DNA of 64,000 nt from Candidatus Eiseniibacteriota bacterium (lineage in GTDB: Bacteria; Eisenbacteria; RBG-16-71-46; CAIMUX01; VGJL01). Both the position numbers and the translations under genes were made by a program. Location of the stretch: contig CAWBWI010000003.1 of the NCBI GenBank assembly GCA_963792585.1, positions 62,942 through 126,941 on the forward strand, in the 5' to 3' direction. Below are positions 10,896 through 33,901 of the stretch, one piece after another. How positions within the stretch are numbered: the stretch's first letter is position 1; every line of letters begins with the position of its first letter. The notes beneath the pieces were generated by a model that saw only the letters and a list, made by a program, of their open reading frames with translations, was not told where the DNA came from and ran no database searches.

Positions 10896-11192
10896 TCCGC
10901 GGCGCGCGGGTTGACTCGCGGTGACCCGGTCCGATCCGCGGCGAGGGTGCCCTGATCTGCGGCGCGCGGGTTGACCCGCCAGGCCGAACCTCGTCACGTG
11001 CTGACGGGGGCCGCAGGTGACGGAAACCCGGGGCGACGCAGGCTTCGAACCTCGCCACCTGCTGACGTGGGCCGCAGGTGACGACGCTGGCGGGTCCGCC
11101 GGCCAGGGAACGAGCGTGGCCACCGTCTCCCGGAGCGCCGCCGCGGCCCCGAACCTCGTCACGTGCTGACGGGGGCCGCAGGCGGCGGAAAC
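10893..11192. repeat. Intergenic repeat cluster: two 23-bp copies plus three copies of about 44 bp
   Basis: tgatc(c/t)gcggcgcgcgggttgac at 10893 and 10953; cgaacctcg(t/c)cac(g/c)tgctgacg(g/t)gggccgcagg at about 10985, 11046 and 11150. Confidence 0.85.
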
Positions 11193-11203
11193 GCGGCCAG
11201 TTG

Positions 11204-12070
11204 CTAGCCGACCGGGATCACCAGGACGTACTTCCCGTCCTTGCCGGGGTACTTCCCGGTCGGGCGACGCCACTTGAGGTAGTCCTCGCGGAGCTGCTTG
11301 ACCGTGATGCGCTGGTTCGGCTTGCGTGAGGGACCCCAGATGGAGCTGATCCGTGGATACCACGGATCGCTCACCCAGATCCCGGCAACCTCGTAGTCGT
11401 CCGTGGAAGCGGGATCCGCGGTGGTCTCGAAGCCGTGCAGGACCCACGAGTGCGCGCCACGCCAGACCAGCAGACCGACCGGTCGTCCGGTCGCGCGGAT
11501 GGCCTCGATACCGCGCCGGACGGCCTTGCCCATCGTCGCCTCGACCACCACCTCGTAGTCGCCGGCCCCGCGCTCCGCCAGTCCGCGGGCCCATCCTTCC
11601 GGCTCGGTGCCGTCGTCACGAGCTTCGGACAGTCTCCGCGCAAGGCCGGCGAGCCTGGCCTGCGTCGCCTTCGTCCGATCGTTCTCCGGGCCGACCACGT
11701 TCAACATGATCTGCATCGCGGCGGCGACACACTGGTCCTTGGTTGCCTGGCTGGCGAAATCGCCCTTTCCGTACAGGTTCACCTTGATCGGCCCGCTCGG
11801 GGTGGGGGAAGGGGTCGGTGTAGGAGACGGTGTCGGCGTAAGGGAGGTGGTCGGCATGGGCGTGGCTGGCGGCATCGGGGAGGTGGTCGGGGATGAGCGA
11901 GGCGTGGACGCGGGGGTCGCCACGGGGACCACTGCGGCGACGGCGGCCGGCGTGGCGACCGCTCCGGCGACGGCGCCCGAACCGGACGGCGCACAGCCCC
12001 AGACGGACCCGAGCACCAGCAGGCTGGCGACCGTGGGCATCAGGCGACGACGTGGGGACTCGGCAGTCAC
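11204..12070 (-). CDS. Exported papain-fold (C39-like) peptidase, probable lipoprotein
   Basis: LLVLGSVWGC, P/T linker, SQATKDQCVAAA (Q...C), GAHSWVLHGF (H), WVSDPW (D). Confidence 0.75.
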   Translation of the reverse strand: MTAESPRRRLMPTVASLLVLGSVWGCAPSGSGAVAGAVATPAAVAAVVPVATPASTPRSSPTTSPMPPATPMPTTSLTPTPSPTPTPSPTPSGPIKVNLYGKGDFASQATKDQCVAAAMQIMLNVVGPENDRTKATQARLAGLARRLSEARDDGTEPEGWARGLAERGAGDYEVVVEATMGKAVRRGIEAIRATGRPVGLLVWRGAHSWVLHGFETTADPASTDDYEVAGIWVSDPWYPRISSIWGPSRKPNQRITVKQLREDYLKWRRPTGKYPGKDGKYVLVIPVG

Positions 12071-12100: not shown

Positions 12101-12177
12101 TGGTAGGGGAGCCAGGACTCGAACCTGGAACCAGCGGGATATAAGCCCGCCGCTCTGACCGATTGAGCTACTCCCCC
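12101..12177 (-). tRNA. tRNA-Ile(UAU), 77 nt, CCA encoded
   Basis: Reverse complement is GGGGGAG TA GCTC AATCGGTCA GAGC G GCGGG CT-TAT-AT CCCGC TGGTT CCAGG TTCGAGT CCTGG CTCCCCT A CCA, a complete cloverleaf. Anticodon at 12141-12143. Confidence 0.95.
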
Positions 12178-12295: not shown

Positions 12296-12610
12296 TCAGT
12301 CGCCGCCGAGCAGGCGGCCGGCGATCGAGCGCAGCCGCAGGGGACGTGGATGCAGACCGCCGTCGCTGGACCCGCCGTCGCGACCGGAGGAAGAGCCATT
12401 GGCGTCCTCCAGGATCGCGCCGCCAGGTGCCCAGGCGTAAGCCGGAAGGCCGGACGCGAACTCGCGTTCGTCCTCCGTCTGGAGGGCCTCGATGGGGAGA
12501 TCGTCCGGGTCGAAGGGGCGGGGGCCGGTGGCGACGACCGGTTCGGGACGGGCGTATGCCGGGGCCCCGTAGAGCTTCGGCAGCGCGACGTGCTGCTCGT
12601 CGATGGACAC
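12296..12610 (-). CDS. Hypothetical protein (about 104 aa)
   Basis: GTG start; VSIDEQHVALPKLYGAPAYARP...PFDPDDLPIEA; coding-like codon usage. Confidence 0.6.
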   Translation of the reverse strand: MSIDEQHVALPKLYGAPAYARPEPVVATGPRPFDPDDLPIEALQTEDEREFASGLPAYAWAPGGAILEDANGSSSGRDGGSSDGGLHPRPLRLRSIAGRLLGGD

Positions 12611-12804
12611 GCGCGGACCTCGAGATGGATCTGATGATTGCGTTGCGCCGGATACCCGGACACACCGTGATGATAGCCACGCCACAGTACCGCGGAATGG
12701 TACGGAAGGACTAGGTGGGCAGCCTCGAACCGGCACGGAACCGGTGCGCCGACGCCCCACCCGACCCGCGGACCCACGGCGGGGAACCGTTGCCGCTCAG
12801 CCGC

Positions 12805-13338
12805 TCAGTCGAACCACGGGCGGATGACCTGGAGCGCGACGACCATCACCAGATAGGCGATCGGGACCGCGGCGAAGAACCCCAGCGCCGCGCTCCAGCC
12901 GCTTCGTCGTCGGGTGCCACCGGAGCCGGTCGGCTGCGGCACCACGAGGTAGGTCAGGACGCTGCCGACCACCAGGACGAGAAGCACATAGATCGCCATG
13001 AACAGGACGCGCAGGTCGCCGCCCGGGAGTTCCGCGCCGCGCGACAGGAGGACGTCATAGGCGAGGTACAGGACCGCGAGGATGACCGCGAGCACGAGGC
13101 TGGAGAGGACTGCGCGGACCACCGGCCGCGGCGCGTTGCGGAACTGTCGCCATCGAACCTCGGCCCATGAACGCCGCCGGGCCGGCGGACGGGTCCCTTG
13201 GCCACCCGACGCATGTTTGGAGTCCGTGGGCCCCCCGCTGGGCTCCCGGCTGGGCTCACCGCCGGACTCCCGGCTGGGCTCGCCGCTGGACTCCCGGCTG
13301 GGCTCACCACTGGGCCCCCCGCTGGGCGCCCCGCTCAC
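12805..13338 (-). CDS. Three-TM hypothetical membrane protein
   Basis: Overlaps the upstream stop (GTGA). Contains RWRQFRNAPRPVVRAV followed by three hydrophobic helices. Confidence 0.75.
   Translation of the reverse strand: MSGAPSGGPSGEPSRESSGEPSRESGGEPSREPSGGPTDSKHASGGQGTRPPARRRSWAEVRWRQFRNAPRPVVRAVLSSLVLAVILAVLYLAYDVLLSRGAELPGGDLRVLFMAIYVLLVLVVGSVLTYLVVPQPTGSGGTRRRSGWSAALGFFAAVPIAYLVMVVALQVIRPWFD
13228..13325. repeat. 24-bp coding tandem repeat (GEPSRES[S/G])
   Basis: About 3-4 units of ctcccggctgggctc(a/g)cc(g/a)c(c/t)gg(a/g). Confidence 0.85.
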
Positions 13339-14573
13339 TCCTGGCCCAGGATCGCCAGGGTCCGTCGCGCCGGCACGGTCTCGGGCGTGTGCGCCGCCAG
13401 CAGCTCCACCGCGTCGACGAATCGGTCCAGCTCGTCCTCCGAGTTGAAGAACCCGACGCTGATGCGCAGGGCATCGACCAACGGGAGCGTTCGCGTGATG
13501 GCGAAGACCCGGGCGCCGAGCTCATCCCGGAGCTGATCCGGCGTCCAGCCGTCCACCGCGAAGGAGACGAGGCCGGCCATATTCTCGCGTGGTGTCAGGA
13601 GGCGGACCCCGGAGATCGTGGCCAGGCGATCCGCCGCTGCACGTGCCAGCCGGTTGCCCCGCTCGTAGATCCAGTCCAACCCCACGAACATGCTCAACCA
13701 GCCGATGGACCGGGCCATCCCGACGATGGACGGACGATGGAAGGCCGAGCCCTCGAACCGTCGCGCCGTGGACCACGGGAGTGCCTCGCCCGAGGAGTCC
13801 ACGCGCTCGAACGTGAAATAGCCGCCGACGCTCGGCATGAGCCGTTCCCGTGCAGCGCGAGTGATCGCGACCGCACCGGTCCCCTCGGGGCCTAGCAGCC
13901 ACTTCTGGCCGGGGATGGAATAGACATCGGCACCGAGCGCGGCGACGTCGATCGGGATCGCGCCGGCACTCTGCGCGCCGTCGACGATGACGAGGGCGCC
14001 CCGCTCGCGGGCGATGGCCGCGATCGCGGCGACCGGAAGGACGGCGCCGGTCGCCCAGAGGACATGACTGAACACGACCGCTCGGGTCCGATCGTCGATC
14101 GCGGCCTCGAACGCCGCCAGCGTTCGTTCGTTATCTCCACCGTCGCCGATGTCGAGGAAGTCGATGTCGATCCCGTGACGCATCCGCTGCACGTACAGGG
14201 GGCCGGTGCCACCCGGATGCTCGAGCCTCGTCGTGACCGCCTTGTCGCCCGGGCGCCAGTCGATCCCGTTGACCCCGATATTCATCCCGTCCGTGGCGGC
14301 GTGGGTGACGGCGATGTCCTCGACGTCGCAGGTCAGCAGGGCGGCGACGGTGGCTCGCGCCTCTTCCAGCCGCCCAAGGAACTCCTGGAAGCCGGCGTTG
14401 TCCGCCCGACCGACCCGGAGCTCATGCTCGGCCATCTGGGCCATGACAGCCGCGGTCTCGGCCGGCAGTGGACCGCTCGTCCCGGTATTGAGATAGATGC
14501 CGGCGGACAGGGCGGGCAGGAGGGCGCGGACGGCGGCGAGCCGCTCCGCTTCGGTCGGGCCGGGGGGGATCAC
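13335..14573 (-). CDS. PLP-dependent class V aminotransferase-fold enzyme (C-S lyase/EgtE/IPN-epimerase-like)
   Basis: YLNTGTSGP, VDGAQSAG, PGQKWLLGP (PLP Lys), LRISVGFFN. No desulfurase catalytic Cys loop. Confidence 0.9.
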   Translation of the reverse strand: MIPPGPTEAERLAAVRALLPALSAGIYLNTGTSGPLPAETAAVMAQMAEHELRVGRADNAGFQEFLGRLEEARATVAALLTCDVEDIAVTHAATDGMNIGVNGIDWRPGDKAVTTRLEHPGGTGPLYVQRMRHGIDIDFLDIGDGGDNERTLAAFEAAIDDRTRAVVFSHVLWATGAVLPVAAIAAIARERGALVIVDGAQSAGAIPIDVAALGADVYSIPGQKWLLGPEGTGAVAITRAARERLMPSVGGYFTFERVDSSGEALPWSTARRFEGSAFHRPSIVGMARSIGWLSMFVGLDWIYERGNRLARAAADRLATISGVRLLTPRENMAGLVSFAVDGWTPDQLRDELGARVFAITRTLPLVDALRISVGFFNSEDELDRFVDAVELLAAHTPETVPARRTLAILGQE

Positions 14574-14591
14574 GGCCGTATGATACCGGCC

Positions 14592-15452
14592 ATGTCCGGC
14601 CTGGCCCGCCCCGAGATCCTTGCAACGACCGAGTGGTTGGGCGAACGACTGGGCAAGTCAGGGATCCGCATCGTGGACGCCCGCTGGCGTCCCGACGGCA
14701 GCGGCGTTGCCGTCCACCGTGCCGGACGGATCCCCGGTTCCGTCCACGTGGACTGGCGAGCGGATCTCGTCGAGTCCGACGAGTCGGGCGATGCGCTGCG
14801 ATTGGCCGGGCCGGAGCTCGTGGCCGGCGTCGCCGAACGCGCGGGGATCGGCGACGGCACCACCGTCGTGATCTACGACGACACGGCCAGCCTCTACGCC
14901 GCCCGGGTCTGGTGGACGTTCCGCGCCTACGGCCTCGAGTCGGTCCGGATCCTCGACGGCGGTTTCCCTTCCTGGGAGGTCGAGGGCCGCCCCGTGACGC
15001 GGACGGTCGTCGAGCCTGCGGCGGGTCCGCTTTCGCTGCCTGCCACGTTCACCCCCCGTGGACCGACCCGGATCCACCTGACCACCACCGACGTCCGCGG
15101 ACTCCTTGGGGCTCCGGACGTGACCCTGCTCGATGCTCGCGCGCCGGCCGAGTACCGCGGCTTCGAGGGGAATACCAAGCGACTCGGGCACATCCCGGGC
15201 GCCATCAACGTGCCGGTGGGCGGGTTGCATGTCGCCGGCTCGCAGCGGCTGCGCGGCGGCGACGAGTTGCGTGACCGGTTGCACGCCGCGAACGTCAGCC
15301 GGGGCCGCCGGATGGTCACCTACGACGGCTCCGGGGTCGCGGCGGCCAAGCTGGCCTTCGTCCTGACCCTGCTGGGCCACGAGGATGTCGCCGTGTACGA
15401 CGGTGGCTGGGCCGAGTGGGGCAACCGCCTGGACCTGCCGGTCGATCGCTGA
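14592..15452 (+). CDS. Tandem-domain rhodanese/sulfurtransferase (SseA/TST-like) with catalytic Cys replaced by Asp
   Basis: IVDARW, GRIPGSVHVDW, LLDARAPAEYRG, GHIPGAINVP, VTYDGSGVAAA, VYDGGWAEW. Confidence 0.9.
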   Translation: MSGLARPEILATTEWLGERLGKSGIRIVDARWRPDGSGVAVHRAGRIPGSVHVDWRADLVESDESGDALRLAGPELVAGVAERAGIGDGTTVVIYDDTASLYAARVWWTFRAYGLESVRILDGGFPSWEVEGRPVTRTVVEPAAGPLSLPATFTPRGPTRIHLTTTDVRGLLGAPDVTLLDARAPAEYRGFEGNTKRLGHIPGAINVPVGGLHVAGSQRLRGGDELRDRLHAANVSRGRRMVTYDGSGVAAAKLAFVLTLLGHEDVAVYDGGWAEWGNRLDLPVDR

Positions 15453-16172: not shown

Positions 16173-17897
16173 TCAGGCCCGGTCCCCGGGACCGGTTCTG
16201 GCGCCTGCGGTCACCAGCAGCTCCGATCCCTGCTGGAGGCCCTCGTACAGGGCGGTCACGGTCGCGACGGTGTCGATCTCACCGGGCGCCTTGTCCCGTC
16301 GAAGGGCGTGGATCCTGGGGAACCGAAGGCTGAAGCCGCTGGCGTGACGCGTGCTTCGGACGATCACGTCGAAGGCGATCTCCACGACGATGACCGGCTC
16401 GACCTCGCGATATCGGCCGGACCGCGTGACCGTGTGCTCCTCGAACCAGGCCGTCATCTCCGCGATCTCGGAATCCGTGAGACCGCTGTAGGCCTTGCCG
16501 ATCTCGACCAGACGGCCGCTGGCCTCGTCGCGGATCGCGAACGTGTAGTCGGACAGGACACCGTGGCGCTTGCCATGACCGACCTCGACGCCCACGACCA
16601 CGCAGTCGATGGTAGCCAGGGCCTTCTTCATCTTCAGCCACCCCAGGCCGCGCCGACCGGGGGAGTACCCGCTGGCGGGATCCTTGACGATCAGCCCCTC
16701 GTTCCGACGGGCACGCGCGTCGGTGAATGCCGCCTCGAGGGCATCCGCATCGGCGGCGACCGACAGGTGTGACCGCAGGAACCGTCCACCGTCGGTGGCC
16801 AGGGGCATCGGGATGGCATCGAGCCGGGCGCGTCGGTTCGAGAGCGGCTCGCGCAGGACCGGCTCGGGGTTCCGGCTCGCCGGGTCGACACCAGGCCCGT
16901 CGGCCAGGACGTCGAAGGCGACGTAGATGACCGGGACATCGGCCTGGATCCGCGCCGACGGATCCTTGCGACCCAGGCGCGCCTGCAGGCTGATGAACGG
17001 CAGCACGAGGCCGTCCTTCCAGGCGAGGATCTCGCCGTCGAGGACGCCGTCCCAGGCGACCATCCGCGCCGAGTCGACGATCTCGGGGAATCCCGTGCTC
17101 ACGTCGTGCAGGTCGCGCGAGTAGAGCCGGACGTCCGTGCCGCGCTTGTGCAGCTGCGCCCGGATGCCGTCGTATTTGTCCTCCACCCACACTTCGGGGC
17201 CCAACCGCCGCACGATCTCGGCGGCGTCCTCGGCCGGCGAAGCGAGCATGAACTTGAGCGGGTGGAACACCGCCAGCCGGGCGGACGCAAGGGAATCATC
17301 GCGAGCCATGCGGGCCAGCCGACCGATATCGCCGGTCAGCATCCCGGCCCATCGAACGTCCTCCAGCGGGCGATCGAACGCCCGGGCGATGGCGGCCTCC
17401 ACGAGCCCCTCGCGAAGCCCGATTCGCAGGTCGCCGCCGAGGACCTTGATGATCCCGCGCGCCGTCGCCGGGTCAGACCGCTGGAGGAGGACGCGCAGCA
17501 GCGCGGTCTTGGGGCCTGGCCCGGATGCCGCCTCCATCGCCGCGAACGTGGCCGCCACGTCGCGGAGACTCGGACTCGTGTCCGGATCCGGATCGTGGCC
17601 GGCAGCGGCGAGGACGTCCTCCACGGCGAGGCTCAGGTCGGAGTGGCGGTCGTACGCCTCCCCGAGTTCGTGCCTCGTCACGCCGGCGACCTCCGCGACC
17701 GCGCCCGCGATCGCGGACCAGCCCAGTCCCGTCGCGCGCTGGTCCGCCTCCGGGAACGGGCGCCCGGTCAGGAAGACGGCGGCGATCGGAAGGTCGTCGG
17801 CGTCGAGGTCGTGCAGGTAGCCGGCCAGCAACGCGGTCTTCTCGGACGTCCGGGTGGTCGCCGCGACGCGTTCGGCGAGGTCGCTCCAGCGGCGCAT
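16173..17897 (-). CDS. lig: ATP-dependent DNA ligase
   Basis: FMLASP, VEDKYDGIRAQ (KxDG), LDGEI, EGLIVK, GRRGLGWLKMK, LRFPRIHALR. Confidence 0.96.
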   Translation of the reverse strand: MRRWSDLAERVAATTRTSEKTALLAGYLHDLDADDLPIAAVFLTGRPFPEADQRATGLGWSAIAGAVAEVAGVTRHELGEAYDRHSDLSLAVEDVLAAAGHDPDPDTSPSLRDVAATFAAMEAASGPGPKTALLRVLLQRSDPATARGIIKVLGGDLRIGLREGLVEAAIARAFDRPLEDVRWAGMLTGDIGRLARMARDDSLASARLAVFHPLKFMLASPAEDAAEIVRRLGPEVWVEDKYDGIRAQLHKRGTDVRLYSRDLHDVSTGFPEIVDSARMVAWDGVLDGEILAWKDGLVLPFISLQARLGRKDPSARIQADVPVIYVAFDVLADGPGVDPASRNPEPVLREPLSNRRARLDAIPMPLATDGGRFLRSHLSVAADADALEAAFTDARARRNEGLIVKDPASGYSPGRRGLGWLKMKKALATIDCVVVGVEVGHGKRHGVLSDYTFAIRDEASGRLVEIGKAYSGLTDSEIAEMTAWFEEHTVTRSGRYREVEPVIVVEIAFDVIVRSTRHASGFSLRFPRIHALRRDKAPGEIDTVATVTALYEGLQQGSELLVTAGARTGPGDRA

Positions 17898-17923
17898 GGC
17901 GGGGATGGTATACGGTTCCGGCG

Positions 17924-18649
17924 ATGGCGCCCCGAGCATGGTTCCCGGAGGTGATATGGGGGTCGCAGGTGGTGCTGCGCCGACATGTTCCCGAGAACCT
18001 GGCCTGGTTCCGACGCTGGTACGCCGACCCCGAGATCGCGCGGCTCGCGCGCTACCAGGAAGCACCGATGCGACCCGACGAGATCGAACGCTTCTTCGCG
18101 TCGAGGGTCGTCGGACCGGACGCTCTGTCGATGGCGATCCACGAACGTGACGGCGATCGCCTGATCGGCACGTGCGCCTTCAGCCAGCTCGACGGCGACA
18201 ACGGCTCGGCGCTCTACCACATCACGATCGGCGAGAAGGACGCCTGGGGCCGTGGATACGGCTCGGAAGCGACCAGACTCATGCTCGACCACGCGTTCGG
18301 GACACTCCGGCTCCATCGCGTGGCGCTGTTCGTGTTCGAGTTCAACGAGCGCGCGATCCGGGCCTACAAGCGCTGCGGGTTCGTCGTGGAAGGCCGATCC
18401 CGAGAGTCCATCTTTCGTGACGGACACTGGTGGGACGAGCTCGCGATGAGCGTCCTCGAGTCGGATTGGCGTCGCCGCCGCGATGCGCCGCCGGGCACTG
18501 AGGGCTCAGATGCAGCTGCCGCTACCCTCGCCCAGACAGCGGGGGTCACAGAACCGGTGGCGCACGCCGCCGCCCCCACTGCGGCATCAGCCGATCCGGC
18601 CCCGGCCAGGGGCGGTCTCGTCCGACGGACGATCAGGAGGTTCACATGA
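17924..18649 (+). CDS. GNAT N-acetyltransferase (RimJ/RimL type)
   Basis: IGEKDAWGRGYGSEA, NERAIRAYKRCGFVVEGR. Confidence 0.92.
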   Translation: MAPRAWFPEVIWGSQVVLRRHVPENLAWFRRWYADPEIARLARYQEAPMRPDEIERFFASRVVGPDALSMAIHERDGDRLIGTCAFSQLDGDNGSALYHITIGEKDAWGRGYGSEATRLMLDHAFGTLRLHRVALFVFEFNERAIRAYKRCGFVVEGRSRESIFRDGHWWDELAMSVLESDWRRRRDAPPGTEGSDAAAATLAQTAGVTEPVAHAAAPTAASADPAPARGGLVRRTIRRFT

Positions 18650-25367: not shown

Positions 25368-27573
25368 GCGCGGGCACGGTGGCCCTCCGGGTCGTAGAAC
25401 GGCGTCGGCGGTGACGACCGCCTCGCGGCCGTCGATGACGACACGGTCCGGATGCGGCGGCCGCCGCTGCCAGCCGAGCATCAGCGCCTTGCCCAGCAGC
25501 GGGGAGTGCCAGCTCCCCGTCACGTTGCCGATGACCTCGCCACCGTCGCATCGAAGATCGGCGACCCCTCGACGGGCGCCGGGCCGTCCATCGAGAATCC
25601 GACCCAGCGCCGGTCGTCGGGGAGCTTCGCGGTCCGCTCCAGCGCCGCCCGGCCGATGAAGCGCGGCTTCTCCATCCGGACCGCCCAGTCCATGCCGAGC
25701 CGGCGCGGCGTCGTGTCGAGCTCGGTGTCCATGCCGACGATGACGTGGCCCTTCTCGAGGCGCAGCCCGAACAGCGCCTGCAGGCCGTGCGGCCGGATGC
25801 CCAGGTCACGGCCGGCCTCCATGAGCGCACGCCACAGCTCGACCGATCGATCGACCGGGTGGTGGAGCTCGAACGCGGCCTCGCCGGTGAACGACAGGCG
25901 CATGACGTGGCAGTCGACGCCGGCGATCACGGCGCGGACGTGGCCCAGGAAGCGCGGTGGCTCCGGGAGGCCGAGGCGGCCGCAGCAGCTCCCCGGCGAG
26001 CGGCCCCGTGACGTTGATCGCGGCGAGCGACATGGTCCGATCCATGACGTGGACGCGGAGGCCCCACGTCTCGATCCAGTCGCGCAGCCACATCTCGGCG
26101 TTGGCCGCGCCGCCGGACGTGAATGACAGCGTGAACCGCGTCTCGCCGTCGCGCAGGATCATCCCGTCGTCCATGACGTGGCCGCGCTCGTTGAGCAGCA
26201 GCGCGTAGCGCGAGCGGCCGACCTTGATGTCCGCGACGTGGCACGGGTAGAGCCGCTCCAGCGCCTCGACGACGTCCGGCCCGCTGACGACGAGCTTGCC
26301 GAGCGTGCTCACGTCGCCGATCGAGACGCCCTCGCGGACCGCCCAGTACTCGGCGACGGCGTCGCCGTAGTGCCACGGCCGCCACCAGCCGCCGAACCGG
26401 TCCATCCGGGCGCCCAGCGCGAGGTGCTCGTCGTGGAGCGGCGTCCGCCGGAAGGCGTCGACCGTCGTGTCCGCGGCGGCCTCGGCGAGGGTGATCTGGC
26501 GCGACGCCGGCCGGGCCGTGAACGGGTCCGGGACCTCGCCGGTCCGGGCGGCGATCCACGAGCGGACATGGGGCAGGCAGGCGCCGCCCTGGCAGGTGCC
26601 GATGCCGGCGAGGGTGCGCGCGCTTCAGCAGCTCCAGGTTCGTGAACCCCTTCGACCAGGCTTCGTCGAGGTCGCCGACGGTCACGTCCATGCACCGGCA
26701 GACGACCGCGGTCGGGTCGGTGGGCGCGGCCGGGAGCGGGTGGTCGTCGGCCGCGGCGCCAACGGTCGAGACCGGCAGGGTCGGCCCGGCCATCCGCGCG
26801 AGCAGGTCCCGCGGCGCCCGGCCGAGATCGACGATGACGGTCCGCGCCGCGATGGATCCGCCCGTCGTGACGACCGTCGTGACCCGACCGGCCGCGTCGC
26901 CCTCGAACCGGACGAGCTCGCGGCCGACCGTCACGACCGGTTCCGGCAGAGACGACGCCGGCGGCCCGGAGCTGGTCCGCTGCCCGCGGGGTCAGCAGCC
27001 CGTCGAGATCGTTGCCCGGGCAGACCGGCTGGATCTCGGCGGCGCCGGTCGCGACGACGATCTCCTCGGTCTCGACGTGGAGCATCCCGGTCGGCGTCCG
27101 CGCGACGACCGTCGGGCCGGGGTAGACGGCGACGACCTCGTTCCCCTCGGCGGCGTCGAGGACGAGCGCGCCTCGCGTGCGTCGGCGGCGGCCCGCCGGC
27201 CGCGTCGCCCCCACCGATGACCACGACCTCCGCCTGCCGGCGCTCGACCGGGACCTCGCCGACGACCGACCCGCGCGGCAGCGGCGGGTTCCCCGCGGCC
27301 GGGTGCCGCTCGACCACGCGTCCCCGGACGCGCCGGGACCTGGCACGTCCGGACGTAGGCGATGCCATCGACGACCGCCAGGCAGTTCCCGCAGTCGCCG
27401 GCGAGGCACAGCGTCCCGCCACGCCCGGGCGGCTCGCCTGCCCGCACGATCGCGACCGCGAGCGCTGTCGCCCTCCTGCGCGTCGATCGGCCGGCCATCG
27501 ACGACGATCCGGCCGCTGACCGACGCACCCGGTCGCGGCCCCCGAGGCCACGGGCCGCCGAGCCGTCGGTCAC
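25364..27573 (-). CDS. soxA: Sarcosine oxidase alpha-like subunit: 2Fe-2S + short Rossmann + BFD-like 2Fe-2S + GcvT folate domain (many frameshifts)
   Basis: LCLAGDCGNC...RTC; VVCRCMDVT...GIGTCQGGAC; DVSTLGKLVVSGPD; RLSFTGEAAFELH; LRLEKGH; TPFYDPEG. Confidence 0.85.
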
Positions 27574-30038
27574 TGGCGCATCCGCAGGCCCTGCGGGTCG
27601 AACAGCGGCTCGGGCTGGAGCCGCGCCGGCCGCCGTCGGCCGATGATCTCGATCTCGAAGCCGTTGCCGCCGGGGCCGTCCGGCGTCGCCAGCGCGGCAG
27701 GCACGTACCCGAGCGCGATCGATCGCCCCACGTGATGCCCGTACCCGCCGCTGGTGACCCAGCCGACGACCTGCGTCGTCGTGCCAGATCGGTTCGTCGC
27801 CGATGACGTCGGCGGGATCGTCCGGGTCCGGCTCCACGACGAACGTGACGAGCCGGCGCGTCGGCCCGTCGCCGGCGAGTTCGGCCTCGTAGGCGCCCCG
27901 CCCGATGAACTCGTGGTCGAGCTTGACGTAGCGCCCGAGACCCGCCTCGGGCACCGTGTAGATCGGCCGGTACTCGCGGAACCACGTCCCGTAGCTCTTC
28001 TCCAGGCGCAGCGACATCAGCGCCCGCATCCCGAACAGCCGCAGGCCGAGGTCCTGGCCGGCCGCGACGATCTCGTCGAACAGCGGGCGCTGGTACTGCG
28101 GCGCGACCCACAGCTCGTAGCCCAGGTCGCCGCTGTAGTTGATCCGGGCGACGTGCGCCGGGACCATCCCGAGATCGACCTGCCGGAACGTCATGAACGG
28201 GAACGCCTCGGACGACAGGTCGAGGTCGGAGATGCGCGACAGGAGCTCCCGCGACAGGGGGCCCGTGACCGACAGGCCGGTCAGGCCCAGCCCCAGGACC
28301 TCGAACCGGACGCTTCCGTCGGGCGGCAGGTGGTGGCGGAACCAGCGCGAGTGGTGGACCTCCGCGGGGAGCGACCCGAAGAGGTGGAACTCGTCGGTCT
28401 CGCTCGCGCGCGCGATCGTGAACTCGCCGACGATCCGGCCCGCGTCGTTGAGCATGGCGGTCAAGGCGATCCGCCCAGGACGCCGGCATCCGTTGGGTCA
28501 GCATCGACGACAGCCAGGCCTCGGCGCCCGGACCGGTGACCCGGTACTTCGCGTAGTTGGAGATCTCGGTCATGCCGACCTGCTCGCGGACGGCGGCGAC
28601 CTCGGCGGCGACCTGCTTCCAGGCATTCGAACGGCGGAAGGTGACGTCCTCGACCGGGGCCAGCCCGTCCTCCTGGAACCACAGGGCGTGCTCCAGGCCG
28701 TAGGTCGCCCCCCAGACCGCATTCGCCGCCGTCAGCCGGTCGTAGATGGGCGTCGTGAGGAGCGGTCGGCCGTCGGGCAGCTCCTCGTTCGGGAAGGTGA
28801 TCCGGAACCGGCGTCGATAGTTCTCCTGGACCTTCGCGTTGGTGTAGGCGAGCGTCGCGTAGTCGCCGTAGCGCGCGACGTCCATGCCCCAGATATCCAT
28901 CCCGGAGTCGCCGTGGTCGCCGGCGGTCATCCAGGTCGCGAGCGCGAGGCCCACGCCGCCGCCCTGCGACAGGCCGGCCATCACGCCGCAGGCGACCCAG
29001 AACCCGCGCAGGCCGCGGACCGGACCGACGAGCGGGTTGCCGTCAGGCGAGAACGTGAACGGGCCGTTGACGACGCGCCGGATCCCCGTCGTGCCCATCG
29101 CCGGGTAGTGCTTGAAGGCCACCGAGAGTTCGGGCGTCAGGCGGTCCAGGTCCTGCTTGAGCAACTGCGATCCGAAGTCCCACGGGCGTCTCCTTCGGCG
29201 ACCACGGCACGCACGCCTGCTCGTACGTGCCCAGGAGCATCGCCCCGCCCTCCTGGCGGATGTAGATCTCGCCGGCGAAGTCGAGCGCCATCGGCATCTC
29301 GTGGCCGGTCTTCGCGACGTGCGCGGCGACCTCCGGCATGTCCTCGGTGATCAGGTAGTGGTGCTCCATGGCGAGGACCGGCAGCTCGAGGCCGACCATC
29401 CGCCCGACCTCGCGCGCCCACAGCCCGCCGCAGTTCACGACGTGCTCGGCGTGGATGGTGTCGCCGCTCTCGACGCGGACGTCCCAGGTGCCGTCCGGAC
29501 GCTGCGACAGCCCGACGACCGGGGTGTGCTGGTAGACCTCCGCGCCGGCAAGCTGGGCGCACTTCACGTACGCGCGCGTGACTCCGCTTGGGTCCACGTG
29601 CCCCTCGATCGGGTCGTAGAGCGCGCCGACGAAGTACTGCGGATCCAGCAGCGGGAAGAGGTCCGCGGCCTCGGCCGGCGAGATGAGCTCGAGTTCCATC
29701 CCGAGGTACCGTCCGCGCGCCTGGGCCATCCGCAGGAAGTCCATCCGGACCTCCGTGTCGGCGAGCATCAGGCCGCCGGGCAGATGGATGGAGCAGTCCT
29801 GGCCGGAGACGCGCTGGATCTCGTCGTACAGCTGGATCGTGTACTGCTGCAGCCGAGCGACGTTCGGGTCGCCGTTGAGCGTGTGCATCCCGCCGGCCGC
29901 ATGCCAGGTGGACCCCGCCGTCAGTTCGCGCCGCTCCAGCAGGACCACGTCAGTCCAGCCGGCCTTCGTCAGGTGGTACAGGACGCTGGCGCCGACGACG
30001 CCCCCACCGATGACGACGACCTGGGCAGACGACTTCAC
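27570..30038 (-). CDS. Dimethylglycine dehydrogenase-like GcvT-family protein (FAD domain + aminomethyltransferase; frameshifts)
   Basis: VVVIGGGVVGASVLYHL, TAGSTWHAAG, NGPFTFSPDGNPLVGP, GMRALMSLRLEKSYG. Confidence 0.93.
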
Positions 30039-30205
30039 AGGACCCTCCACGGACCACTCGAATGCATCGGTAGCCTACGCGACGGGCGGGTCGACGCGCC
30101 GAGGCGATCACGCGAACCCTGCTGGGCAAGCTTCCGTCCCAGTCACCCCACGAATCCCGTGGAAGCGCGGCGGGTCGCTTGCGGCCCGATTACTCGTCCG
30201 CGGTA

Positions 30206-30395: not shown

Positions 30396-30660
30396 GCGCA
30401 TGCGCAGTCTTGACCGTCGCGTCCATCTGCTACTCGACGAGCCGCGACACCTCAAGCTCGTGATCGAGGCGAAGCGGCGAAACGTCTCGATCGCCGAGGT
30501 CATCCGCGACGCGATCGACCGCCTGCCCACCGATGCCGAGGTCCGGCGCGCCGCGATCGACCGCATCCTCGCAGCGAAGCCGATGGAGGTCCCGCTCGAC
30601 CCCAGGGATCTACGCCGCGAGCTCGATCACGAGCACGAGCGGCACGAACGCCGCCCGTGA
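30394..30660 (+). CDS. vapB: Ribbon-helix-helix (CopG-like) antitoxin
   Basis: RRVHLLLDE...NVSIAEVIRDAIDR; GTGA overlap with a PIN gene. Confidence 0.85.
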   Translation: MRMRSLDRRVHLLLDEPRHLKLVIEAKRRNVSIAEVIRDAIDRLPTDAEVRRAAIDRILAAKPMEVPLDPRDLRRELDHEHERHERRP

Positions 30661-31196
30661 TCCTTCTCGACACGTCCGTCCTGGTCTACGCGGTCGGCAT
30701 CGAGCACCCCCTCCGCGATCCGTGCCGTCGAGTCCTCTCGGCGCAGCGCGACGGCGCGATCGACGCGGCCGTCACGGTGGAGATCCTCCAGGAGTTCACC
30801 CACGCTCGGGCTCGGCGCCACCCGCGGGCCGATGCGGTGGCGGTCGCCCGGGACTATGCCGCGTCGCTGCGTGTGCTCCAGGCGACGGCCGCCGACCTCG
30901 ATCGAGGCCTGGACATCTTCGTGGCGCATCCCGATCTCGGCATGTTCGACTCGGTCGTCGCGGCAGTCGCCCTCGACCACGGTGCCACGGCCCTGATCTC
31001 CGCCGACGGCGGTTTCGGCTCGGTCACCGGGCTGCGCTGGATCGAATCCGCAACACCCGATCTCCACACGATCCTCACTCCAGCAGGGGCCGAGTCGATT
31101 GGTCTCGCGTGGACATCCAACATCCTCGCCGCGACGACGAGTAGCCGGAGGGCAAACCCGTGGGCATGTTCGCCGCGGCCTGACCCCGCGGCCTAG
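30657..31196 (+). CDS. vapC: PIN-domain VapC toxin (true C-terminus may be shorter)
   Basis: ILLDTSVLVYA, EILQEF, MFDSVVAAVA, LISADGGF (acidic tetrad). Confidence 0.92.
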   Translation: MILLDTSVLVYAVGIEHPLRDPCRRVLSAQRDGAIDAAVTVEILQEFTHARARRHPRADAVAVARDYAASLRVLQATAADLDRGLDIFVAHPDLGMFDSVVAAVALDHGATALISADGGFGSVTGLRWIESATPDLHTILTPAGAESIGLAWTSNILAATTSSRRANPWACSPRPDPAA

Positions 31197-31412
31197 AGTA
31201 GTCCGTGGGGACGCCGCCCTCGGCGACCCGGCGGGCGACGAACGCGTCGAGCTCCTCGCGGATGCCTTCGTCCATCGGCGGCGGCTCGTAGGCGCCAGAG
31301 AGCTCCTTCCAGTCCGGTTCGCCTTCGGCCGGCACCTCCGGCGATCCGGCCTCCTGCCAGGTCTCATAGTTCCGCCAGTCGGACAGCATCGGCTTGTGGA
31401 AGGCCGTCGCGG
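31193..31412 (-). CDS. mttB: C-terminal fragment of an MttB-family (trimethylamine/glycine-betaine) methyltransferase; 5' part lost at the junction
   Basis: TAFHKPMLSDWRNYETWQEAGS...W...YEPPPMDEGIREELDAFVARRVAEGGVPTDY matches the MttB-superfamily C-terminus. Confidence 0.8.
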
Positions 31413-31413
31413 T

Positions 31414-31611
31414 TTAGAAGGAGATGTCGGCCGTCCCGGAAGCGACCTCCTTCCCGTCCGTAGGGTGCACGCCGAGGTCGGCCTCGGGGGCATCAAAAAT
31501 CAGCCATCCCTCTCCGACGTCGGTCCCCCGGAAACCGAGCTTGTCCCTGAAGAATGCGCGCAATTCTGCGGCGCTGGAAGAATAGAACATGGCATGAAGG
31601 CCGCGGATCAT
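31414..31611 (-). CDS. VOC/glyoxalase-family protein, 3'-truncated at the junction
   Basis: MIRGLHAMFYSSSAAELRAFFRDKLGF..TDVGEGWLIF...LGVHP...DISF stops after the first beta-alpha-beta-beta-beta module. Confidence 0.75.
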   Translation of the reverse strand: MIRGLHAMFYSSSAAELRAFFRDKLGFRGTDVGEGWLIFDAPEADLGVHPTDGKEVASGTADISF

Positions 31612-32156: not shown

Positions 32157-33659
32157 CTAAGCCCGAGGGACCTTCTGGTCGTATTCCCCCGTCACCCCAA
32201 CTTCGCGAAGCCGCGCGGTGATCGCATCCACAATCGCCACCATCTGCTTCTGCGACGTGGGCGACTCGGCCACGATCACGAGGGACGGCTTGTTGGATGA
32301 CGCGCGGATCAGCCCCCAACTCGCGTCCTCGAAGACGAAGCGGACGCCGTTGACCGTCACCAGATCGCGGATCTTCGCCCCGCCGATCGTGACCCCCGCG
32401 ATCCGGTCCTTCTCATAGAGCGCCGTCAGCGTATCCACAACCGCGTACTTCTTGTCGTCAGGGCACTCGATCCCAAGCGTCGGCGACTGATAGGTCGTCG
32501 GGAGATCGTCGATCATCTTGGACAACGGCTTGTCCGCCGCGTCGAGCAATCGCAGGACCTGGGCCGCCGCGAGGGTCGCATCGTCGTATCCGCGGCCGTA
32601 CGGCTCCTTGAAAAACCAGTGGCCGCTCTTCTCGAAGCCGGCGATCGCGTTGACTTCGTTCACCTTCGACTTGATATAGGAGTGGCCGGTCTTCCACATG
32701 ATGACCTTGGCGCCGGCCGCCTCGAGGACCGGATCGATACCGAATAGACCCGTGCTCTTGACGTCGATCACGAAGGCCCGATTCGGGTGCGTGGCGGAGA
32801 TCCACCGCGCCACGAGCAATCCCAGCTTGTCGGCGAAGACCGGCCGGCCCTGATCGTCGACCACACCCACACGATCGCCATCGCCGTCGATCCCGATCCC
32901 AAGCTGCGCGCCCGATTCCTTCGTCACCCGGCTGATATCGTCCAGGAAGCTCATGTCCTCGGGATTCGGGTTGTGGCGCGGGAAGGTCCAGTCGGGGGAG
33001 CAGTCCAGCTCGTGGACCTCGCAACCGAGGTCGCGAAGGACCGTGGGGGTGAAGCGACCGGCGGTCCCATTCCCCGCCGCCAGGACGACCTTGATCGGCC
33101 GTGTCAACTTGCCCGCGCGGAGGACGTCCTTTCGGTATGCGTCGAAGACCTCGTTCGTCGCCTCATGCGATCCCTTGCCGGATGCGAACTTGCCCCCCAT
33201 GACGATCTGCTTGAACTGGAGAATTCCGTCCGGGCCGAGGGTCGAGGATAGACCGTTCGCCACCTTGAGACCGGTCCAGCCGTTTTCGTTGTGGCTTGCC
33301 GTCACCATGGCGGCGCCCTTGACGCCGAAATGATGCTGCGCGAAGTAGGTTAGCGGCGTCACCGCGAGGCCGATATCGATCACGTGCACGCCGGTCGACA
33401 TCAACCCAACGGTCAGGGAGGTGCAGAGATCCTGGCTGTAGGAGCGGAAGTCATGCCCGACGACGACCCTGTCCTCCTTCAGGATCTCCCGCACGAAGGT
33501 GCCGTACGCTTTGCCGAGGACGATGAACCCGTTCGGGTTGATCTCCTTGCCGAGGACCCAGCGAACATCGTATTCGCGGAATCCATTGTCCGTGATCAGC
33601 GTCTCCTCGAAGTAGTCGAACGAGTTGTACGGCACCTTCTTCGCGACATCCCAACGCAT
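32157..33659 (-). CDS. Phosphomannomutase/phosphoglucomutase
   Basis: GFREYDVRW, TASHNE (phospho-Ser), DGDGDR, GFEKSGH, GLIRASSNKP; GGAGG before ATG 33659. Confidence 0.96.
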   Translation of the reverse strand: MRWDVAKKVPYNSFDYFEETLITDNGFREYDVRWVLGKEINPNGFIVLGKAYGTFVREILKEDRVVVGHDFRSYSQDLCTSLTVGLMSTGVHVIDIGLAVTPLTYFAQHHFGVKGAAMVTASHNENGWTGLKVANGLSSTLGPDGILQFKQIVMGGKFASGKGSHEATNEVFDAYRKDVLRAGKLTRPIKVVLAAGNGTAGRFTPTVLRDLGCEVHELDCSPDWTFPRHNPNPEDMSFLDDISRVTKESGAQLGIGIDGDGDRVGVVDDQGRPVFADKLGLLVARWISATHPNRAFVIDVKSTGLFGIDPVLEAAGAKVIMWKTGHSYIKSKVNEVNAIAGFEKSGHWFFKEPYGRGYDDATLAAAQVLRLLDAADKPLSKMIDDLPTTYQSPTLGIECPDDKKYAVVDTLTALYEKDRIAGVTIGGAKIRDLVTVNGVRFVFEDASWGLIRASSNKPSLVIVAESPTSQKQMVAIVDAITARLREVGVTGEYDQKVPRA

Positions 33660-33901
33660 CAGTGTCCTCCCTCTTGGGGGCACGGCGGCCCGACCGTTGA
33701 TGATGCCCGATGGCAGGAGATCCATCAAGGCGAGGATTGGCACTGCAATCGGCACACACGCGACGCCTCCGCCACAGTCTCCGCCTGCGGGTCCCCGGCC
33801 ACGTTATCTGGAACTCGCCATTCGGATACCACGCGAGCCCCTCCAATCCTCTGACCGCCCGGATGGTGTACGATTTCGGATGAGAAGAGGAGGTCGATCC
33901 G

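Follow-up and report, generated by a model that had tools for sequence, protein, structure and literature searches.

A probable TilS-independent tRNA-Ile(UAU) of a Limnocylindria clade, carried on an apparently chimeric contig

In most bacteria the codon AUA is read by a tRNA with a CAU anticodon, the C34 of which is modified to lysidine by TilS; in the E. coli set, the acceptor-stem determinants for TilS are C4:G69 and C5:G68. Eukaryotes have a tRNA-Ile with the anticodon pseudoU-A-pseudoU, and tRNA-Ile(UAU) occurs in Nanoarchaeum and Korarchaeum, in each case with an isoleucyl-tRNA synthetase (IleRS) of the eukaryote/archaeal type. In eukaryotes it is a type-2 IleRS that works on tRNA-Ile of the UAU kind.

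Departures from the lysidine system have been described in bacteria. By 2013, the bacteria known to have tRNA-Ile(TAT) and no tilS were nine species from three clades, and a few species had both (PMC3575796), the latter being Lactobacillus casei, L. plantarum, Cyanothece PCC 7424, and Ferrimonas balearica (PMC3575796); cases of tRNA-Ile(UAU) were still termed rare in a 2026 paper (PMC13752280). The tilS-less Bifidobacterium and Neorickettsia possess a eukaryote-type IleRS that was suggested to accept the UAU anticodon (Taniguchi et al. 2013, PMC3575796). Mycoplasma mobile, a reduced AT-rich parasite, uses a type-1 IleRS adapted via Arg865 (at the Trp905 site) and leaves U34 unmodified (PMC3575796). 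In Bacillus subtilis, a tilS suppressor proved to be a G34U change in tRNA-Ile1 (PMC3919564; Fabret et al. 2011 via PMC3575796).

Here we describe a tRNA-Ile gene with a genome-encoded UAU anticodon at 12101-12177 of the window, i.e., the whole 64,000-nt stretch of DNA analyzed (positions 62942-126941 of contig C3 in a binned metagenome-assembled genome, MAG). It is probably a functional, TilS-independent, AUA-reading tRNA-Ile(UAU) of a clade in the class that holds Candidatus Limnocylindria, lying on a 94-kb block of C3 that was most likely joined to it by a chimeric assembly. As such, it would be a minor tRNA-Ile and the sole AUA reader in a large TilS-less clade of Limnocylindria (Chloroflexota).

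The tRNA gene, its conservation and its neighbors

ARAGORN found a single tRNA gene in the window, a tRNA-Ile with anticodon tat on the minus strand at 12101-12177, and the same interval matched the Rfam model RF00005 over its full length (72.5 bits, E = 2.5e-15; gathering score 29), which bears out the original prediction of a tRNA-Ile with a UAU anticodon. The minus strand reads GGGGGAG UA GCUC AAUCGGUCA GAGC G in its 5′ part, and GCGGG CUUAUAU CCCGC UGGUU CCAGG UUCGAGU CCUGG CUCCCCU A CCA thereafter. The acceptor stem (GGGGGAG/CUCCCCU) has G1.U72, G2-G5 paired with C (including G4:C69 and G5:C68), A6:U67, and G7:C66; U8, A9, and the D arm are normal; the anticodon stem GCGGG/CCCGC, with G29:C41, closes the loop C32-U33-U34-A35-U36-A37-U38; the variable loop has 5 nt; the T arm is CCAGG-UUCGAGU-CCUGG; and A73 precedes a CCA that is encoded in the gene. 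The perfect cloverleaf with a CU-UAU-AU loop that had been proposed agrees with this sequence and with the full-model Rfam match, and the particulars given with it (G1:U72, U38, G4:C69, and G29:C41) are all correct.

Canonical features of tRNA-Ile2(CAU) are absent from 12101-12177, where position 34 is U and not C and the acceptor stem has G4:C69 and G5:C68. The E. coli IleRS identity set, reportedly the work of Nureki and colleagues, is one from which the acceptor G1.U72 and G4:C69, as well as U38, differ. Simple scans beside the tRNA found neither a sigma-70-like promoter nor an intrinsic terminator, and a match to sraL at 11142-11261 was set aside as chance, its 18.4 bits falling well short of the gathering score (39).

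We scanned species-representative genomes with the anticodon arm, position 34 being entered as N, and obtained at least 119 loci. Among the matches listed, 116 of 119 carry T34 in near-identical tRNAs and none carries C34, so that a survey of relatives for a CAT anticodon speaks for the prediction and T34 is no sequencing slip. Nearly all of these 116 tRNAs come from Candidatus Limnocylindria/Limnocylindrales or Chloroflexia/Chloroflexota MAGs. The DNA on either side of these loci keeps the gene order of window 6-19 kb, with a nucleotide identity of 70-80%, and the tRNA has the same chromosomal neighborhood in >100 species. In a sample of the class (described below), 31 distinct sequences of the family keep G1.U72, G2-G5:C, A73, CCA, C32, U33, UAU, and A37, while base pairs are exchanged in the anticodon and T stems and at pairs 6 and 7 of the acceptor. 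At position 38, 13 sequences have U, 17 have C, one has G, and none has A.

Covariation was tested on 13 diverged members of the family, with 500 shuffles and slid folds as controls. Pairing was found in 98.9% of the cloverleaf cells, against 82.3% in the shuffles (0/500 as high) and 39.6-57.1% in the slid folds; compensatory changes fell at 10 of the 21 pairs, against 6.7 (3/500 as high) and 0-4, respectively; and the covariation score was 0.388, against 0.108 (0/500 as high) and at most 0.113. Diverged UAU variants mostly adjoin the same gene for a pyridoxal-phosphate (PLP) enzyme, and this shared neighbor points to vertical inheritance of the tRNA. No integrase was found among the neighbors of the tRNA, and the neighborhood shared by >100 species does not suit a phage- or island-borne accessory tRNA. 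We hold with high confidence that 12101-12177 is a real tRNA gene.

The genes around it belong to the same conserved neighborhood. Just downstream of the tRNA lies a Pro/Thr-rich lipoprotein-like gene (11204-12070, minus strand), syntenic in Limnocylindria and without a family match; upstream are two conserved minus-strand genes (12296-12760 and 12805-13338), also without a family match, which were recovered at 86 and 105 loci, respectively, with variation at third codon positions across them. They are followed by a class-V PLP enzyme on the minus strand (13335-14573; Pfam Aminotran_5, 3.1e-52), SufS-like below cut-offs: its best NCBIfam model, sufS, gives 138 bits where 475 would be needed, and the enzyme has a single Cys and no active-site loop of the SufS type. 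On the plus strand, a double-rhodanese, 3-mercaptopyruvate sulfurtransferase-like gene extends over 14064-15452 (Pfam Rhodanese, 5.6e-34; NCBIfam PRK11493 at 132 bits, under cut-off), with its true start after 14064. Thiolation of U34 by these SufS-like and rhodanese neighbors was considered and dropped, the PLP enzyme having a single Cys, lacking the SufS-type loop, and scoring far under the SufS cut-off. An ATP-dependent DNA ligase (16173-18065, minus strand; Pfam DNA_ligase_A_N/M/C) also lies in the conserved Limnocylindria neighborhood. Farther along, the minus strand of 26309-30050 carries dimethylglycine/sarcosine-oxidase-like sequence, with DAO at 29043-30050 and FAO_M plus GCV_T within 26309-29164, in two overlapping frames that may reflect either a frameshift (long-read error) or two separate genes.

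The foreign block and the join at 31.4 kb

The bin comprises seven contigs (5.4 Mb; completeness estimate 84%, contamination estimate 1.24%). One of its genes is a tilS (C6:357264-357827), which scores 149 bits (cut-off 93.6) and is arranged as tilS-hpt, and the bin has three CAU tRNAs: an initiator, an elongator Met beside tilS, and an Ile2-like tRNA at C1:365371 (GGGCCCA..., C4:G69, C5:G68) that adjoins a tRNA-Val(CAC). The elongator-type tRNA(CAU) (C6:357076-357148; GGCGGUG..., loop AUCAUAA) is situated 115 bp upstream of tilS. The genome search for tilS and a CAU Ile2 tRNA that had been suggested as a check therefore found both in the bin, but on contigs of a different lineage; a naive bin-level check for tilS misleads because tilS and tRNA-Ile2(CAU) belong to the main organism of the bin and the UAU tRNA to a foreign block. 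A search of the whole bin for IleRS (TIGR00392) returned no match at E ≤ 1e-50, which is consistent with the completeness estimate.

Several comparisons separate the two lineages. No UAU tRNA was found in 40 taxonomic relatives of the bin (same family, order, or class), the weak BLAST matches there being Asn, Met, Arg, and Val tRNAs, and none of 12 relatives tested has the adjacent PLP enzyme at E ≤ 1e-40. The first impression from the BLAST of the 40 relatives was a singleton acquisition of the tRNA by the main organism; that idea was abandoned and became a clue to the chimera. The bin's TilS protein has homologues of 41-55% identity in 5/5 same-family relatives and of 33-41% in three same-order genomes, and no match in 10 Limnocylindria genomes. 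By tetranucleotide PCA and GC content, C3:0-100 kb is an outlier at 70-71% GC against ~65% in the rest of the bin, and GC in the window drops from ~0.70-0.75 to ~0.62 between 31.0 and 31.7 kb, with the step from 0.70 to 0.62 at ~31.3-31.5 kb. Two genomes of Limnocylindria, G043 and G044, align colinearly with C3 at 75-86% identity, from C3 position 49 kb or earlier up to window position 30026.

The window accordingly divides into a Limnocylindria-like block at 1-31408 (C3:1-94349, reaching to the contig start; 70-75% GC; colinear with G043/G044) and DNA of the main organism at 31612-64000 (~62-67% GC), where genes on the right side match a same-family relative (G004). A phosphoglucomutase (32157-33755) is 66% identical to its counterpart in G004, and the next gene, an M48 peptidase, is 73% identical, the two genes being syntenic with G004; the Limnocylindria counterparts of these two genes are merely 29-31% paralogues. 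We rejected the possibility that the whole bin is a mixture of two genomes, the tRNAs forming one non-redundant set and C3:1-94 kb being the sole strong composition outlier.

Homology to G043/G044 resumes at 31197-31408 and then stops abruptly at 31408. On the left of the join is the 3′ stub of an mttB-family methyltransferase (31197-31408, minus strand; Pfam MTTB positions 435-500 of 500, E = 1.2e-16); on the right is the 5′ stub of a VOC/glyoxalase-like gene (31414-31611), also on the minus strand, with 65 codons and a stop created at the join, where relatives have 116 codons. The VOC-like frame ends in ...GTADISF and then the stop, and 20 of 22 metagenome homologues of the stub have 116 aa and read ...GTADISF-YCDDI...QLYQPKY. 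Because the blunt join cuts both genes, leaving the last 66 positions of mttB and a 65-codon stub of 116, an assembly chimera is favored: we hold with fair confidence that the join is an artefact of metagenome assembly and that the main genome is without the tRNA.

The best-surviving alternative is a genuine, recent horizontal transfer of the 94-kb block from a Limnocylindria donor, which would give a cell with TilS and tRNA-Ile2(CAU) in addition to the UAU tRNA. Block and host DNA are contiguous in one contig, the contamination estimate of the bin is just 1.24%, genomes with redundant TilS and UAU tRNA are known (PMC3575796), and real recombination could also yield a blunt join. A toxin-antitoxin pair lies ~200 bp from the join as well: an RHH antitoxin and a PIN-domain (VapC-like) toxin (30401-31196, plus strand; Pfam PIN, 3.8e-15) have the DAO-type oxidase gene on one side and the mttB-type gene on the other and are missing at the same spot in G043/G044; the syntenic blocks at this site are 1171 nt apart in the window and 637 nt apart in G044. 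However, the block consists of core chromosome conserved in Limnocylindria, with synteny in >100 species, and is not a mobile element; no integrase or repeat was seen at the join; host DNA adjoins the block on a single side, the other being the contig end; the GC of the block has not been ameliorated; and the join interrupts both genes in mid-frame, with the rest of the 116-codon host gene found nowhere else in the bin. We therefore regard transfer as unlikely. The exact junction sequence had 0 matches in metagenome contigs, a search that decides neither for chimera nor for transfer, and no record was found that exactly matched the proteins encoded to the left or to the right of the join.

With an assembly chimera as the preferred reading, the genome context of the bin is invalid for window 1-31408, including the PLP/rhodanese pair at 13335-15452 and the sarcosine-oxidase-like genes at ~23.5-30 kb. 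Two other contig ends also stand out in composition. The last ~6.3 kb of C3 (C3:1326000-1332291) has 73-75% GC against ~65% and carries sugar-nucleotide/glycosyltransferase-like ORFs; its tblastx matches to Limnocylindria DNA are weak and scattered (33-79% over 14-60 aa), and it may be a second foreign piece. C5:1-40000, at a contig end, has 39-46% GC against 65% in the bin, as would fit foreign DNA or a mobile element.

Decoding of AUA in the source lineage

TilS was searched for with TIGR02432 (the TilS N-terminal domain). None of 60 Limnocylindria genomes carrying the UAU tRNA has a match above the cut-off of this model, against 8/8 control genomes (relatives of the bin's main organism), and the search controls were positive in 10/10 bacteria. 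In five of the 60 carriers there are ~20-bit matches, which fall on the generic PP-loop at the start of open frames 472-853 aa long.

To counter selection bias, we drew 151 genomes (≥85% complete) evenly from the class of a closed Limnocylindria genome, G085. TilS is above the cut-off in 89 of them, so its loss marks a large clade within the class and not the whole class. The UAU tRNA, sought as the conserved acceptor stem plus the CTTATA loop (a reversed control pattern gave 0 matches), is present in 52, and the two occur together in 0/151 (Fisher's exact P = 9.4e-31). Ten of the 62 TilS-negative genomes are also without the patterned tRNA, among them G233, in which TilS is split in two. The complementarity is to that extent imperfect, although these ten genomes could simply be incomplete MAGs or have a tRNA with a diverged acceptor stem.

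The tRNA census was taken in G085 (3.62-Mb chromosome; Rfam, all tRNAs typed). It has 46 tRNAs, one per anticodon save CAU, which has two, and thus a single GAU and a single UAU. The two CAU tRNAs are the initiator (CGCGGGG...) and elongator Met (GGCAGGG...), with no third CAU tRNA of the Ile2 type among the 46; because of this, AUA can be read in G085 by the UAU tRNA alone. These results (0/60 carriers with TilS, no co-occurrence in 151 genomes, and G085 without tRNA-Ile2(CAU)) support the TilS-independent decoding of AUA in a high-GC lineage that had been raised in the original prediction. Since the clade is without tilS and without a third CAU tRNA, AUA would be read by direct U34:A pairing instead of through lysidine; the state of U34 and the avoidance of AUG misreading are the parts of the explanation that we infer.

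In the same closed genome, tRNA-Arg is represented by GCG, UCG, and CCG, and ACG is missing; a tRNA-Arg(UCG) also lies at C3:33683-33759, in the foreign block. Given the missing ACG, CGN is apparently read without A34-to-inosine editing, and TadA may be dispensable or absent in the lineage of G085, which would make this another exception, besides AUA, to how bacteria usually decode.

Codons were counted in 12 orthologous genes, frames checked, at the Limnocylindria loci (163,805 codons). ATA occurs 0.24 times per 1000 codons (40/163,805), against 37.7 for ATC and 0.89 for ATT, and AUA is a nearly abandoned codon in the clade. ATA was seen in 22 alignment columns, a small sample drawn from 34 species. 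Most of these columns hold chiefly Ile, Val, or Leu, and Ile dominates in seven, in several of them at 80-97%. Mean BLOSUM62 scores at these columns are 1.88 for Ile, 1.66 for Val, 1.23 for Leu, and 0.75 for Met. ATA is consistent with the standard assignment, Ile fitting best, though in these 22 columns Ile is not cleanly separated from Val.

The extreme rarity of ATA (0.24 per 1000) would also suit a redundant or decaying extra tRNA in a lineage where AUA is effectively unassigned. Against this, the tRNA is single-copy, and strong purifying selection acts on it: compensatory changes occur and the anticodon is invariant across deeply diverged members; in 34 species, conserved genes do have ATA, at columns of Ile, Val, or Leu; and the closed genome has no other AUA decoder. 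We consider this explanation very improbable.

Slightly less probable still is charging of the UAU tRNA with an amino acid other than Ile (e.g., Met or Val), with AUA reassigned. The departures of G1.U72, G4:C69, and U38 from the E. coli IleRS set would accord with it, as would the nearly equal scores of Val and Ile in the ATA columns; but Ile is the best-fitting residue, seven ATA columns are dominated by it, A35, U36, A37, and A73 are kept, and the lineage has a type-2 IleRS, which has been proposed to serve the UAU tRNA in Bifidobacterium (PMC3575796).

In the IleRS of G085 (1123 aa), the domains tRNA-synt_1, Anticodon_1, and DUF5915 were found, and the zinc domain zf-FPG_IleRS was not. Among PDB structures it is closest to the 1032-aa IleRS 8c8w/8c9d, to 1ile, and to cytoplasmic IleRS of eukaryotes; DUF5915, the lack of the zinc domain, and these matches place it in type 2. 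The IleRS of the TilS-bearing G004 is also type 2, so the type permits the switch and is not diagnostic of it. Charging with Ile would fall to this eukaryote-like, type-2 IleRS of the lineage, as proposed for Bifidobacterium and Neorickettsia.

The idea that the gene is an ordinary tRNA-Ile2(CAU) in which T34 arose as a mistake of sequencing or assembly has nothing in its favor but the prior that errors occur in long-read MAGs, and is scarcely credible with T34 in at least 116 species representatives and 52 class-sample genomes, C34 in none, and TilS absent.

As to the origin of the tRNA, no close paralogue was found in a closed genome, where its identity to any other tRNA is ≤75%. Its best match in TilS-bearing members of the class is a CAU tRNA, 82-84% identical over positions 7-67, with the acceptor GGGCCCG/CGGGCCC, the anticodon arm GCGGA-CUCAUAA-UCCGC, the variable loop UGGUC, and the T arm CCAGG/CCUGG. 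Judged by sequence, this class CAU tRNA is a typical tRNA-Ile2, with a D-arm-to-T-arm body like that of the UAU tRNA and a different acceptor and position 38. The UAU tRNA may have descended from tRNA-Ile2(CAU) by C34U, A38Y, and remodelling of the acceptor. The CAU locus of one TilS-bearing class member showed no synteny with the UAU locus, which leaves in-situ conversion unsupported; because the one locus tested was not syntenic, we infer this descent rather than read it from gene order.

We tentatively raise a coordinated redesign that accompanied the loss of TilS, possible but rather doubtful at present, in which the body of tRNA-Ile2(CAU) was retained while C34 changed to U, A38 to a pyrimidine, and the TilS-recognized acceptor GGGCCCG to GGGGGAG, with the invariant G1.U72 and C32-Y38 as new functional elements. 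If such a redesign took place, G1.U72 could be an identity element for IleRS2 or an anti-determinant against MetRS, and C32-Y38 could tune the affinity of the anticodon loop, possibly together with a putative U34 modification, and so keep UAU off AUG. The TilS-bearing and TilS-less sister lineages would then form a before-and-after series for the swap of a decoding system.

Comparison with known systems

TilS-independent decoding of AUA is already known; what is new here is a large, free-living, high-GC clade of Chloroflexota that uses tRNA-Ile(UAU), and for Chloroflexota or Limnocylindria a full-text literature search found no paper on such a tRNA. TilS passes for near-universal and essential among bacteria, and a large, uncultured clade abundant in soil and freshwater has dropped it. 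The clean complementarity inside one class (89 genomes with TilS, 52 with the UAU tRNA, overlap 0) offers a natural system for how AUA/AUG discrimination and recognition by IleRS are solved anew, and for what G1.U72 and Y38 contribute.

The genomes of the L. casei type, with both tilS and tRNA-Ile(TAT), resemble the bin when it is taken at face value, but the real lineage of the tRNA is without TilS, and the co-occurrence of tilS and UAU in the bin is best explained by the chimeric contig. The B. subtilis G34U suppressor is alike in that a UAU tRNA-Ile is able to replace the lysidine system in a bacterium; it is a laboratory mutation of the major tRNA-Ile1, whereas the Limnocylindria tRNA is a dedicated, anciently fixed minor tRNA with an acceptor stem of its own. 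The tRNA-Ile of eukaryotes, Nanoarchaeum, and Korarchaeum shares the UAU-type anticodon and the eukaryote/archaeal-type IleRS, in another domain and with known pseudouridylation of the anticodon.

M. mobile tRNA-Ile2(UAU) is like the tRNA described here in its genome-encoded UAU, the lack of both tilS and tRNA-Ile2(CAU), and the lysidine-free reading of AUA (PMC3575796). In contrast to M. mobile, the Limnocylindria clade is free-living, with ~70% GC, genomes of 2.5-4 Mb, a type-2 IleRS, and AUA almost unused, and its tRNA has an invariant G1.U72 and Y38. Closest in logic are Bifidobacterium and Neorickettsia, which share the loss of TilS, the UAU tRNA, and the type-2 IleRS, Bifidobacterium being high in GC as well; the clade here differs from them in belonging to another phylum, in an independent origin, in spanning at least 116 species representatives, and in having TilS-bearing sisters within its own class.
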